Part shown: one piece after another, positions 6,001 through 11,797 of the stretch
How the letters are laid out: every line of letters begins with the position of its first letter
How positions within the stretch are numbered: the stretch's first letter is position 1
From: a virus
Taxonomy: Duplodnaviria > Heunggongvirae > Uroviricota > Caudoviricetes
Virus record (IMG/VR): IMGVR_UViG_2740892233_000017
Direction: 5' to 3' (one strand)
DNA: 11,797 bases
Program-made: the position numbers

Positions 6001-9000
6001 ACCGGAGAGCTGGTTGACGCTTCCGGGATTTTCCGAAAATTATTGGTTGACGAATCTTTATTTTCCCGAAAGTTTCCGGACTGAAGCATGGCTTCGCGGC
6101 AATCGTTCCAGCCTGTAGCGTATGCAGCCGCTTTGCTGCTGCCTTCAACTGGCGCATCCTGCCAATACATTTCTTCCGGCACTATCGGCGCTGGAGGGGC
6201 GGCAAATAGATATCCGCCAAAGTCAGGAAGCTCTCTAATGGCCTGTACGAATTTTTGTTTGCCTACGTCAACCCCTAATGGGTAATGAGCTATAATCTTT
6301 GCCACCGGCTCTGCTTCCAGCGATGCCAGCGCAATCCGTGCCAGCTCTTCCGCTTCTTCTGCTGGAAGCACAACGTTGCTACCCGGTCCGTATGTTTCGC
6401 GCCAATGCTGGATTGTCAGCAGTCGATCTTTGGTAAAAGTGGTCATAGCTATTTCACCTTAATCTCAACATTTCGCAGCTTTAGCTCTACTGGCAGGTCT
6501 GACTTTCCTGTTAATGCTAATGCGAGATTTTCTGGAGTAGTGAGAACAGTTATTGTTTTCCCCCTCGCCAGACGAATAATCATGTGTATCTCGCTATCGT
6601 CACATGCTCCTGGTCGAACAATTGAGATTTGTCCGTTCATCTCACTCTCCTTTGATGCGAATGCCAGTAGCGCGGATTGCATCGATGACTTCAGAAACTT
6701 TGTATGCCATTACCGTTTGGTAATCATCGTGAAAATCTGTTCGATGNNNNNNNNNNCGGGCGTTCGGAATAAAGGAGCCTGACGTAGATTATCCAGTGAC
6801 GGTAGTCGAGGCTAAGGGCTTTCTTAAACTCATACCCACGTCTGCGGTAGTTATGAATCAGCCATTCGGCCTGTTCTTCAGTGCAGGGATCGTGCTGATA
6901 CCAGTCATATTTGAATGTGTGAGAACACCGCCCTTGCCTGCTGGCAGGGGCGATATCAGAATTGTGATGTTTGGTATTGTGCGCCATCGGTTTTCTCTGC
7001 TGGCGCAGCAGGTGCCAGTTGTTCAAGCTGGCGTGCGGCAATATTGTCTCTGATTTCTGTTGTCGTCAACAGGCAACGTGCTATCATCGAATGGTGTTCT
7101 ATCCTACTCCGTGAGGTTTACCATGCGTACAACCCAACAATTCAGCATTACATTAACTAACGAAATGGCTGACATGGTGCGCGCCCGTGTGGCTTCCGGT
7201 GCCTATGCTTCAGAAAGCGAGGTCATTCGTGAAGGGCTTCGCGCACTGAATGAGCGCGATAAAGCAATCGAAGCGTGGTTAACGCATTCAGCCGCCCCCT
7301 CTCTTGATTCTATCCGCGAAAATCCAAACAACGGACGCTCCATTTCACAGGTTCGCGCCGCGATTCGATCCGGGAAGTAATCTGCATGACATATGAAGTC
7401 ATCATTACTCCTGAGGCCGAACAACAAATAATCAACCTGCACAGGTATATAACGGAGAAAGCAGGGAACGTCATTGCTGACAATTATGCCAATGCGCTTC
7501 TTGATTATCTTGATGGGTTTTCTACATTCCCGCATCGGGGCAATAAACGCGATGATATTCGCCAGGGGATGCGGGTAACTCATTTCCGCCACAGAACGAT
7601 TATTGCTTTTGCCGTTGATAGCAGAAAAGTCTTTATTGTCGGTATCTATCATGGTGGGCAAAGTTATGAAACCGATTTCTTATAAACTTTTACCCACATC
7701 ATTCCGGTGTTAGAATTAACCGTCCGCCCCCTCTCTTACTGGCGGATTCGTAGGCTATATAAATCAAAGATCCCGGCTCATGTTTATGTCGGGATCTTTT
7801 TTCGGCGATTTATCCCCAGCGGCAAATCGAATACACCACCAGCGCCACCGCCATCGCAATTCCTACCGTTGTGAATGCTTCAGGCCAGGTCATCGTAAAA
7901 TATCCTCCACGCTTATCAGTCCGTTCCGCTCCAGATAACTCATCGCCTTATCCGGTAATTTGCAGTCTGGCTTCGCTTTCCTCAGTTGCCAGGTTAACTG
8001 CTTTACCAGCATGGTTAACTCATCGACCAGACGCTGATATCCCACTGGTTTGTATTCATGCAATTTACCGGCTGGCTCTGCTGCCAGCGATACCAGTGCG
8101 ATTTCCAGAACAGCAATATCCATCTTATATGTGCGGATGATGTCATGGTCGATTGTGCCCGGTATGCACAGTCTCTGTGTTTCAATAGTCTCCTCTGCGT
8201 GAGCTATTAACTGCTCTCTGGTAAAAGTCGTCATGCCGTAGCCCCTTCTTGATATTTTTCAAACCAGAACACAACTGGGTCAGATTTCATTTCAACCAAT
8301 CCCATACGAACCAGCGCTTTGCCTTTCCCGGACGCAAGGAATTCACGACGACCATCACTGATAATTCGCCGATAATCTTCCAGACTACTGCAATGCTTGT
8401 GCAGATTGCATGGGTGGCATGCCGGAACCATGTTGGATATATCGTCACGTTCCTGGTGAAGCATATTTCCATCAAAACGAATGACCGGTTTTACATGGTC
8501 TGCATGCCACTTTTCGCCAAGTTCGCAGCCGCAATAAGCACAGCGACCGCCGAACTTCATGCGCAGCTCTGCACGTTGTTTTTTCGTCAGTGCCATATCA
8601 GCTTTCCTTATACGGATTAATTTTATTGTGCAGTGTGCTGAACGACGCCCACACCACGTCGTTATACAATTCAATAACTGGCTCAATTATTTTCACGATA
8701 AACCAGACCAGTAATAGCGGGGGTATCGGTATCATCAACACGATAAATATAATGAGAAACAAAAATTCTGTCGCTCTACTTTTTCTCGGATATTCTTTTC
8801 TGAATAATGTAGTCATTTCTTACCGCCCTTTCAGGCGGCCTCCTGATGTTTTGAGGGTGCAGAAATCCCTCCGGTTAAGGATTAAATTTTTAACTAAATT
8901 TAATTATTCAGGCGCGATAAGCTGTTCCGCACAATCCAGCAATGCTTCTGTCGCTTCCTTAAGCGTTACTGTATCGCTATCATCCAGTCCTGCAACTTTT

Positions 9001-11797
9001 TCGTACCTGACAAACGCCGCGCAAAGCTCGTTAAACAACCCCGCCCGTACTTCAGCCAGGAAAGCGTCGGTGGCCGGAGTTTCAGGAATCCGTCTCCTCA
9101 TCCGTTCTATTGCATGATTGAACCCGAAATCTTCAGCAAGAGATACGTCATCCATATTGTCATTGTCGTCCTCAATATCCCGTGGTTCTGGAATTGCAGA
9201 CTTTATTACCGCATTCTCCGCCGCCAGCGCCACAAGATTAGCTTTCAGCTCTGCAATTCGTTTGTTTTGGGCTTCCCGTTCATCCAGTAGTGCCAGCGCA
9301 ACATTTGGATTAAAAGCAGCAATAAATTCAGCGTTTGCATAAGCCTGAACATCTGTTTCAACCAGGCAGTTAACATGACATTCTGCAATTACGCCACCGG
9401 GCTCTCCTTTCCATTTTTGACAAACAAAAACTCCTGTTATATTCCCATGCTGATTGCCCGATGTATGCCCTACGATGTAGCATCCTTTAGTTGCTTTCTC
9501 TGCTGCTTCACGCAGCGCCTGATAGTCAATCTCGCTCATTCATCGCCCCACTCATCACAATATGCTTCGACCGGATTTTTTCCTGCTTCATAATCATCAC
9601 GCCATGCTTCAGCATCAGCAGCACTGCCACCACGTAACTCTGCATATTCCATTAACAGTTCATGCCATTCTTCAAAACTGACGCTGTATTTAGTTGAACC
9701 AAAATCAGCCATTTTGTTCTTCCTCTTCGTCTTTTATTTCGTGATATGAATAATTGCAGTAGTTAAAGAAAATATCTTTTGCTTCGTCATGTATTTCATC
9801 AGGCGTCGCATCATCATCCACTTCGAATTCATCCTCGAAATCTCCACCGGCTATTCCCGTTTCAATAATTATTTTAAACTTTCGCATTTAACTACCGCCC
9901 TTTCGGGCGGCCTCCTGACATTAATCGTTGTGGTAACTCATGGCTTCATTTGCAACATCAACCGGATCAACCTCCCTCCAGCAATAATTTGGGTCGGCTC
10001 CTTCAGGCGTCCACGGTTCTAATTCATNNNNNNNNNNTTCCATTTGTTCACCACGGGTAAGCCCGTTTTCAAGCGGATTTTTAATGAACAATTCAATACG
10101 TTCTTTGGTAATAGTGGTCATGTGTTACTCCTTAACCCGCAGTGCTTTCAACTGATGAGGGGAACAAAATCTTTTCATCAAACCCTGCATTCATATCATG
10201 AACAGCAACACACCAATCCATCGACGAACGATTATCAAGAGCCTCCATGATTTCATCCATGCGGCGTAGGTCATACAGGTAAATGCTTTTATCGCCAATG
10301 GTGTAAAAGCCAATTTTTTTCGGTGATGGACAGCGATCAAGAACTTCCTGTAATTCGTTCAACCATGCCCGTTCTTTTTTTGTCAAAGTTGCCATATCAG
10401 TTTTCCTTATACGGATTAATTTTATTGTGCAGTGTGTTGAATGACGCCCATACCACGTCGGTATACAATTCAGTAACTGGCTCAATTATTTTTCCGATTA
10501 TCCAGACTAGGATTAACGGGGATATCGGTATCATCAACACGATAAACAGAATGAGAAACAGAAATTCTGTTGTTCTACTCTTTCGCGGATATTTTTTCTA
10601 AATAATGTGACCATTCATTACCGCCCTTTCGGGCGGCCTCCTGACATTAATCGTTGTGATAACTCATAGCTTCATTTGCAGCATCAACTGGATCAACCTC
10701 CCTCCAGCAATAATTTGGGTCGGCTCCTTCAGGCGTCCACGGTTCTAATTCATTTTTTGCCGCATTCTCATCGCCAGTAATTTTAAAAATCTGCTCAGAG
10801 AATTTTCTTGCCCACTCGTTATATTTTTCCGCATTAATGGCTTTCTGTGTATTTAACATAAATATACCTCCAGTTCAGGATTAGATTTTATTTACAGCGC
10901 TAAATTTATTTATTCAGTTCTGGATTTTGTCGCCCTGCGTATCCGCGCTTTCGCGTTACGTTCAATCTGAATTAACTTTTCTATATTTTTCCGCCTTTCC
11001 TGTTCCTCCTGGCGCAATAGCCTTACATCATCTGCCAGTCTGGTTTCTCTTTTCGCCACAGAGAGCATCCAGTCAAACGGCTCCACAACCGCACCGCAGA
11101 TTTTACAGCGGACCTGGCGCTCTTTTTCGTCAACCCGAACAGAGGCGTGATGACAATATGGTCTTTCCGATGGCTCATAAAGAAAATTAACCTGATTACG
11201 AGGGTCATCCTCTTTTACCGGAAATAAAACGATATTGCTTAACTCATCCTCTGGTTTTATTTCCATGCTCCTCTCCTTTGATGCGAATGCCAGCGACGCG
11301 TAATGCGTGTTCTAGGTCAATCAGGTAAAGCCAACTGCCATTTTCTTTAGGTATCATGACATGTCGCTCATCTGCATTTATCGGGTGTCCATATCGAAGG
11401 TCGTAGCGAGTCGGTAATTGAACTTCCCGCGCATCCAGTTCAGCAATACGCTTGCTCCCATCAGAGATAACGCCTTCGTAATACTCACGCTGCTCGTTGA
11501 GTTGTGATTTTGCTTCTTCCAGTCCATCCAGCAAACCAGCGATAATATCCGCTTCCCGATGACGGATATGACGCTTAAACGCAGCAAGAGCCGCATCACA
11601 ATCCCGTTCAGCATTTGGGCTGTCCGGGGTAGCCTGATACCACGCCAGCGTCGACTGATAGTTTTGTGCTGCCTCACGAAGCGCCTCATAGTTAACCTCT
11701 CTCATCGAGCCACCTCCTGATAAATCACCGCATGCCCCAGTTTCTCCGCCAGTGCCAGCTCTGCCTTAGCGCCCGCTGACCGCTGCCAGCCATTCAG

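Follow-up and report, generated by a model that had tools for sequence, protein, structure and literature searches.

Three copies of a short element, in which a Shine-Dalgarno (SD) hexamer, a GAAA-capped hairpin and a start codon follow one another on the same mRNA strand, lie in an 11,797-nucleotide (nt) stretch of Caudoviricetes DNA (IMG/VR record IMGVR_UViG_2740892233_000017; the whole stretch is referred to below as the window). The reading that we favor, with moderate confidence, is that this element is a portable, hairpin-bridged 'split' ribosome-binding site (RBS), like those of bacteriophage T4 genes 38 and 25, and that it also serves as a recombination linker. The 22-nt string AGGAGGCCGCC(C/U)GAAAGGGCGG is present exactly three times in the window, always on the minus strand, and the pattern AGGAGGCCGCCYGAAAGGGCGG has exact matches at 8823-8844, 9895-9916 and 10621-10642, the positions at which an earlier note on this DNA had reported it. 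No additional copy was found in the window even when three mismatches were allowed, and 200 dinucleotide shuffles gave no match. The three copies are paralogous repeats (family D3) and are not independent of one another.

All copies share one anatomy (coordinates of the element and its genes refer to the minus strand throughout). In copy 1, the SD hexamer AGGAGG occupies 8839-8844 and is mostly unpaired in the predicted ensemble, its last G excepted; it is followed directly by the hairpin CCGCCU-GAAA-GGGCGG (8823-8838), with a U.G closing pair beside the loop, and then by the spacer UAAGAA and the AUG (8816) of a DUF4014 gene (spacer and AUG at 8814-8822), so that the start is 6 nt from the stem and 22 nt from the SD. 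Copy 2 consists of AGGAGG (9911-9916), the hairpin CCGCCC-GAAA-GGGCGG (9895-9910) and the spacer UAGUUAA with the AUG (9887) of a DUF7167 gene (spacer and AUG at 9885-9894), the start being separated from the stem by 7 nt and from the SD by 23 nt. Copy 3 has AGGAGG at 10637-10642 and the hairpin CCGCCC-GAAA-GGGCGG at 10621-10636; here the spacer UAAUGA leads to an AUG (10614), 22 nt from the SD or 6 nt when the hairpin is looped out, in front of a frameshifted second DUF4014 homologue (spacer, start and homologue at 10397-10620).

Folding of ~70-96 nt around each copy predicts the hairpin every time, with pair probabilities of 0.94-1.0 (0.94-0.99 in copy 1, ~1.0 in copy 2). The 6-bp stem has a predicted free energy of -12.4 kcal/mol, and a seventh pair, G.U, in which the last G of the SD takes part, brings this to -14.4 kcal/mol, the values obtained for copy 2; copy 1 is less stable (-9.8 kcal/mol with 6 bp and -11.8 kcal/mol with the G.U extension). 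In the ensemble prediction, the bases of the SD other than that last G are mostly unpaired. Both the hairpin and the distance of 22-23 nt between SD and AUG had been proposed in the earlier note, and both are borne out: the measured distances are 22, 23 and 22 nt, and they shorten to 6, 7 and 6 nt with the hairpin looped out.

The association of the hairpin with translation starts extends to other genomes. From more than 200 loci that were fetched, we obtained 188-191 hairpin copies with at most two mismatches, using search patterns that left the start codon unspecified. Every one of these copies carries an SD-like hexamer directly 5' of the stem, most often AGGAGG (155 copies) or GGGAGG (27), less often CGGAGG (3) or AGGGGG (2), and rarely AGGAGU, AGGAGA or AGGAAG. 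An ATG or GTG follows 6-9 nt past the stem in 186 of 188 copies, at a linear distance of 22-25 nt from the SD, and the order of SD, hairpin, short spacer and start codon that had been noticed in the window is thus general to the family. In 170 of the 186 cases the start opens an open reading frame (ORF) of at least 30 codons; in the remaining 16 the ORF is shortened or frameshifted. The hexamer variants keep their pairing with the anti-SD sequence, GGGAGG and AGGGGG through G.U pairs and CGGAGG, AGGAGT and AGGAGA with 5 bp retained; the internally mismatched AGGAAG is limited to the two copies that have no start codon, and a GGGAUG variant precedes a decayed ORF. No alternative SD at normal spacing is present in the 188 copies, whose spacers are A/U-rich (UAAGAA, UAGUUAA, UAAUGA(AAA) and similar), and apart from the SD, a G-rich run is present only in the 3' arm of the stem, which is base-paired.

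We propose that the element would act as a portable cassette for translation initiation on the polycistronic early mRNA of Escherichia coli lambdoid prophages. In this cassette a strong SD, AGGAGG, would be joined, with zero gap, to a very stable 6-7-bp G+C stem with a GAAA tetraloop, followed by 6-9 A/U-rich nt and the start codon. The 30S subunit would pair with the exposed AGGAGG while the hairpin stays folded. With the 16-18 nt of the hairpin looped out, the distance from SD to AUG would fall from 22-25 nt, which would be nonfunctional, to a functional ~5-9 nt, and the start codon, 6-9 nt beyond the base of the hairpin, would reach the P site. Furthermore, the near-identical 26-nt core, standing in front of unrelated small accessory genes, could supply the short homology by which the genes on either side are swapped; the cassette may provide such homology because it is functionally constrained and identical before unrelated genes. 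The split RBS suggested in the earlier note thus holds as regards its architecture, its association with starts, the lack of another SD and its agreement with the geometry of T4 gene 38, and the mechanism itself is put forward by analogy.

The clearest comparison is offered by DUF4014 loci, which were recovered through the protein and hence without bias toward the element. Among 80 such loci, 65 have the hairpin cassette and 15 have a conventional AAAGGAGAGUGAU-AUG or GGGAGUGAU-AUG arrangement with a spacing of ~6 nt. Because the loci divide in this way, with none intermediate, the hairpin cassette and the ordinary RBS appear to behave as alternative solutions for one gene. Genes downstream of the element are 77-85% identical at third codon positions, compared with ~89% at first and second positions. 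Since these identities indicate purifying selection, the downstream genes must, as far as their sequences tell, be translated. Where the element follows Ead/Ea22-like genes, 87 nt separate the upstream stop from the start, and simple translational coupling is therefore ruled out in that context.

The same data bear on the idea that the hairpin is an mRNA stability or processing element, acting either as a GNRA-capped barrier to 3' exonucleases or as an anchor for RNase E in the A/U-rich spacer. The early transcript would then be segmented, its cistrons would differ in half-life, and the adjoining SD would be merely a weak or irrelevant leader. Such a role would suit a hairpin that is very stable and intercistronic, with A/U-rich single strand right after it and with no U tract, which makes it no terminator yet leaves it able to be a decay barrier; moreover, stable tetraloop hairpins are known from intercistronic regions of phages, and the invariance of the sequence is not something that the spacing model requires. 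However, a decay barrier needs neither an SD at zero gap nor a start at a fixed 6-9 nt, both of which are near-universal, and cleavage in the spacer would part the only SD from the AUG of genes under purifying selection. Homologous genes without the hairpin carry a normal SD, as if the two arrangements were alternatives for one function. We consider a stability element unlikely.

Conservation of the element exceeds that of its surroundings. The 26-nt core (UCAGGAGG-stem-loop-stem-UA) is 97% identical in pairwise comparisons, as opposed to 85-90% for the adjoining DUF4014 coding sequence. More than 190 copies reduce to 21 distinct haplotypes, in which 95% of cells are paired, 13 cells hold one-sided changes that keep a wobble pair and seven are unpaired. 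The wobble changes are mainly C to U in the sense of the mRNA (CCGCCU, CCGUCC, GGGUGG). Variants that preserve wobble pairing recur in many copies and in several contexts, and disruptive variants are singletons. To judge from these sequences, the pattern fits selection for an RNA helix on the sense strand, but is statistically not decisive. One copy in Rac-SA53 (KU052037, ~14694-14760) has two wobble substitutions in its stem (CCGUCU); at this locus an IS1 element interrupts the downstream gene ~20 nt after the AUG, and AAC stands in place of a stop codon after the stem.

In the Ead/Ea22-like context, conservation reaches further upstream. Here the conserved block measures ~62 nt and consists of AAUCCUUAACCGGAGGGAUUUCUGCACCCUCAGAACA (8853-8879 in the window, minus strand) plus the element, and it is also found in ~50 other loci. 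It contains a further hairpin, A, with the sequence GAGGG-AUUUCUGCA-CCCUC (8853-8871), which is kept in all 'U1' contexts and shows no covariation. The ~62-nt block is invariant and also allows an alternative AAUCC/GGAUU pairing.

Several observations weigh against the split RBS. First, no compensatory base-pair change occurs among the 21 haplotypes (no pair is altered on both sides), the stem is almost invariant, and RNAalifold gave a covariation term of ~0 for 20 longer cassettes; the covariation check suggested in the earlier note therefore yielded a well-paired stem with no two-sided change, and the hairpin structure rests on thermodynamics and on the rarity of disruptive variants. Second, the near-invariance of both stem and loop exceeds what a spacing device needs, which hints at a sequence-specific partner or at homogenization by recombination. 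Third, stem-disrupting variants exist in a few phages (CCACCC, CGGCCC). Fourth, in the Ead/Ea22-like context the RNAalifold consensus adds a conserved 4-bp UCCU/AGGA helix that would partly occlude the SD. Fifth, a possible 9-codon mini-ORF (MSGGRPKGR*; 9892-9921 and, identically, 10618-10647) runs across the hairpin in the '...HND*' upstream context, and only there: its AUG overlaps the upstream stop (UAAUG), it covers the SD and the hairpin, and it ends at a stop directly after the stem. Together with the stop codon that follows the stem, this mini-ORF would fit a termination-reinitiation relay.

In such a relay, ribosomes would restart at the UAAUG, translate the mini-ORF and thereby melt the hairpin, stop after the stem and reinitiate 3-6 nt further on, the hairpin itself preventing independent initiation. 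Copies 2 and 3 both have the mini-ORF, and in its frame a stop codon comes directly behind the stem in 186 of 188 copies, with all three stop codons in use (TAA 126, TAG 58, TGA 2; the two exceptions have CGG). The commoner Ead/Ea22-like context, copy 1 included, nevertheless lacks a start for the mini-ORF, as the frame is closed by TAA and holds no ATG, GTG or TTG. The U after the stem is explained equally well by the G.U closing pair, and the purines after it by the A-rich spacer; in addition, one and the same cassette serves both upstream contexts. A relay is thus, in our judgment, very unlikely.

The near-invariance of stem and loop, beyond the need of a spacer, raises instead the idea of an operator for a factor acting in trans. 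The GAAA hairpin would be a boxB-like site for an RNA or for a protein of phage or host, such as an arginine-rich N-type peptide, whose binding would switch translation of all copies together. Up to nine copies per genome, spread over different prophages, could be addressed in this way, and the hairpin has a superficial likeness to lambda boxB. However, there is no boxA, the copies lie away from early promoters, the loop has four bases where boxB has five, and no Rfam family matches. The element also occurs in prophages that differ in immunity and antiterminator type (Stx-type, Rac-like, mEp460) and in both early operons, and this spread argues against a phage-specific partner. We regard this kind of operator as extremely doubtful. 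A related proposal, that the element is a shared translational operator through which one trans factor, be it an arginine-rich peptide of a phage, a host protein or a small RNA, would switch a cross-prophage regulon of accessory genes, with the cassette as the joint for plugging in new genes, appears highly improbable as well.

The split RBS, by our reading, would at the same time be a mosaic joint, and the three copies in the window illustrate how this could come about. A 140-nt repeat at 9888-10027 (family D2), comprising the 3' end of an upstream gene (...MSYHND*) and copy 2, is 96% identical to a second repeat copy at 10614-10753, which carries copy 3; a 223-nt repeat of DUF4014 coding sequence at 8576-8798 (families D1 and D3) is 87% identical to 10375-10597. 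Copies 2 and 3 thus have their upstream 140 nt in common and cease to match directly past the stem; the downstream 223 nt are common to copies 1 and 3, whose divergence begins just 5' of UCAGGAGG. In ATCC 25922 (NZ_CP037449, 4139454-4141115), two copies of the element have the reciprocal partners: the ...HND* gene precedes DUF4014, and the Ea22 tail precedes DUF7167. These copies and their accessory modules lie downstream of replication genes, in the early-right (nin-like) region, which indicates that the cassette moves between both early operons.

When the 200-nt flanks of 187 copies were clustered, nine upstream and 11 downstream classes were obtained in 30 combinations, and the element is therefore also a mosaic joint. 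Like the boundary sequences of lambdoid phages, it is conserved above its flanks at gene boundaries, and its two sides assort independently. The earlier suggestion that the element marks module boundaries is well supported by this reassortment of upstream and downstream partners. Short conserved sequences as foci of module exchange are an established idea for lambdoid phages (PMC2327257, citing Clark et al. 2001).

These facts would also be expected if the element were a recombination linker at the DNA level and nothing else, that is, a block of 26 nt (or ~62 nt) copied between prophages by homologous or Red/RecT-type recombination, with no role in RNA. The 30 partner combinations, the reciprocal ones in different prophages, the sharp break in identity at the element and its conservation above the flanking genes all speak for this. 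Yet a patch of homology needs no palindrome, no consensus SD, no wobble-compatible changes and no fixed distance to a start; 26 nt is short for efficient homologous exchange; and the translation of the downstream genes would be left unexplained. A linker without a function in RNA seems to us distinctly unlikely. In the combination that we prefer, a split RBS would also undergo recombination within its own sequence.

The element is widespread in E. coli. A 36-nt query centered on it gave 4,783 matches; 2,616 of 5,426 complete E. coli genomes have at least one, O157:H7 among them, and no genome has more than nine. It is found in ~22 of 50,697 phage records, among them ArgO145, some Stx2a phages, mEp460 and Rac-like phages; HK620, lambda and P22 are absent from the 28 phage records with a match, and the Rac prophage of K-12 does not have it. 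A scan of viral contigs that left the stem unspecified (TCAGGAGG-N6-GAAA-N6-TA) returned 123 matches, of which 93 are family members, all with near-consensus stems; beyond these, the same architecture with other stems appeared in that scan only as chance matches. A generic scan for SD, hairpin and start in ~200 lambdoid loci found nothing outside this family, and a search of genome contigs with the DUF7167 protein gave three loci only and added nothing. Neither the whole window (searched to E = 5) nor a 161-nt stretch (to E = 10) gave a relevant match in Rfam 15. In the searchable literature we found no paper containing the sequence, no description of a conserved SD-hairpin in early accessory ('ea') regions and no mention of DUF4014 or DUF7167. 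The element is thus undescribed in the searchable literature and in Rfam, but in its mechanism it would belong to two kinds that are already known, split SD sites and the boundary sequences of lambdoid phages.

The window is the early-left ea region of a wrbA-integrated, Stx-type lambdoid prophage, and every gene in it lies on the minus strand. The 3' part of wrbA (1-579) overlaps the end of the integrase gene (576-1910; 444 amino acids [aa]) by 4 nt, and together they form the left end of the prophage. Over positions 8500-11000, Escherichia phage ArgO145 and several Stx2a-converting phages match the window with an identity of ~97.6%. Copy 1 lies downstream of an Ead/Ea22-like gene and serves the DUF4014 gene at 8598-8816 (72 aa; Pfam PF13198, E = 5.7e-22); copy 2 serves the DUF7167 gene at 9705-9887 (60 aa; Pfam PF23768, E = 7.9e-15). 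Upstream of copies 2 and 3 are two versions of a 66-70-aa ORF ending in ...MSYHND*. The AUG of copy 3 opens 26 codons only, and the remainder of its DUF4014 gene is in a different frame; the frameshift coincides with a run of six A residues, compared with seven in intact DUF4014 alleles. The allele with six, which four IMG/VR contigs besides the window also have (L105, L110, L113 and L193), may represent a pseudogene, a slippage site or a sequencing error in the homopolymer.

The position of copy 3 next to copies 1 and 2 calls for caution. A run of 10 N (10028-10037, no strand) stands at the edge of the 140-nt repeat as a possible scaffold join (another such run is at 6747-6756). ArgO145 and a wrbA-integrated Stx2 phage have a single copy of the 140-nt repeat segment, compared with two in the window, and the extra ~590 nt (10038-10618) resemble instead a prophage of E. 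coli ATCC 25922. Because of the N run at the repeat edge and the single copy in the closest phages, the adjacency of copy 3 to copies 1 and 2 is possibly a scaffolding join. From these sequences, copy 3 may have been scaffolded in from a different prophage of the same genome, or it may belong to a real recombinant; similarly, the 66-aa ORF at 9921-10121, which spans the N run, may be chimeric.

Some other features of the window may be recorded here. An HNH endonuclease gene (8231-8686, minus strand) comes directly after the DUF4014 gene of copy 1, as in ArgO145, and is missing from the ATCC 25922 arrangement; we found no link between it and the hairpin element. At 5236-5325 on the minus strand, between an anti-repressor-like ORF (4556-5224) and a 298-aa ORF (5550-6446), is a full-length match to the Rfam family sRNA-Xcc1 (RF02221; 65.4 bits against a gathering score of 53, E = 2.6e-10). 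Three minus-strand ORFs that are otherwise different share their initial ~23 nt (6424-6446, 8212-8234 and 10099-10121; family D5), MTTITKER being among the encoded starts. D5 may represent another type of conserved joint, one that falls within the initial codons of genes.

If our preferred reading is right, the element would extend hairpin-bridged RBSs beyond the T-even phages for the first time and would far exceed any other natural one in abundance, with ~4,800 copies in 5,426 complete E. coli genomes, O157:H7 included. It would mean that the 30S subunit routinely accommodates a stem-loop of 16-18 nt between the SD and the P site, and that gene finders and RBS calculators that score the linear spacing from SD to AUG mis-score these genes or assign them the wrong start. 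It would also offer a concrete, sequence-defined example of the long-postulated lambdoid linker, here for single accessory genes, whose homology would persist because the linker is conserved as a functional element. Moreover, being short and self-contained, the element could serve as a portable, insulated initiation cassette.

Comparison with known systems helps to place the element. Lambda boxB has a G+C stem and a GNRA-like loop, and in its G+C stem, its GNRA-type purine loop and its location in an early lambdoid transcript the element resembles the boxB of the lambda nut sites. Unlike these, it lacks a boxA, has a tetraloop and not a pentaloop, is present in many copies fused to an SD and a start, and is not beside pL or pR. 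Direct reading of the sequence, which shows no CGCUCUUA-like boxA, a tetraloop, and copies placed between accessory genes, led us to reject a boxB/nut site. An intrinsic terminator was likewise rejected, as none of the three copies is followed by a U tract, whichever strand is read. Hairpins that resemble terminators and do have a U tract lie elsewhere in the window, at 2267-2250 and 4542-4524 on the minus strand. The former, just upstream of a 99-aa ORF next to int, reads AACCGCC-UUCG-GGCGGUU followed by UUUUCUU, and combines a CCGCC/GGCGG stem like that of the SD hairpins with a UUCG loop. Stable C(UUCG)G tetraloop hairpins were reportedly described in intercistronic regions of T4 by Tuerk et al. 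in 1988. The element shares with these, and with REP-type stabilizers, a short G+C stem, an extra-stable tetraloop and a place between phage cistrons. Those hairpins, however, do not lie between an SD and a start codon, whereas here the position relative to both is fixed.

As a joint, the element recalls the modular theory of Susskind and Botstein, and the 'boundary sequences' or linkers of lambdoid phages that Clark et al. are said to have described in 2001 for HK620. As with these, the boundaries of genes or modules in diverged genomes share a short conserved sequence, and the flanks of this sequence reassort. It differs from the HK620 boundary sequences in that it bounds single small accessory genes and not functional modules, and in its evident RNA-level anatomy. 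That it is itself one of the seven boundary sequences of HK620, lambda, P22 and related phages was considered and rejected, since HK620, lambda and P22 are without the element, a judgment made without direct comparison with the published sequences.

The closest parallel is with the split initiation regions of T4 (Nivinskas et al. 1999; Malys & Nivinskas 2009; reviewed in PMC3014915). There a hairpin shortens the spacing of 22 nt to 5 nt in gene 38, and that of 27 nt to 11 nt in gene 25; initiation falls when mutations destabilize the stem, and the structure has been verified by dimethyl sulfate (DMS) probing and with reporter fusions (PMC3014915). Each T4 site is a single locus, inherited within the T-even phages and supported by mutagenesis and DMS probing, whereas the split RBS described here is predicted from sequence. 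Unlike them, it forms a multi-copy family, resides in temperate lambdoid prophages, precedes at least six unrelated gene families, sits at mosaic joints and shows no covariation. In its layout it nevertheless has the features of a split SD site: the SD is more than 15 nt from the start, a predicted stable structure lies wholly between them, the residual spacing is 6-9 nt, and no other SD is present. As in T4 genes 38 and 25, which have no other SD either, the stem-loop is contained between SD and AUG at an intercistronic junction of a phage, and the geometry comes close to that of gene 38, with a linear distance of 22-23 nt here and 22 nt there, and a looped-out distance of 6-7 nt here and 5 nt there.

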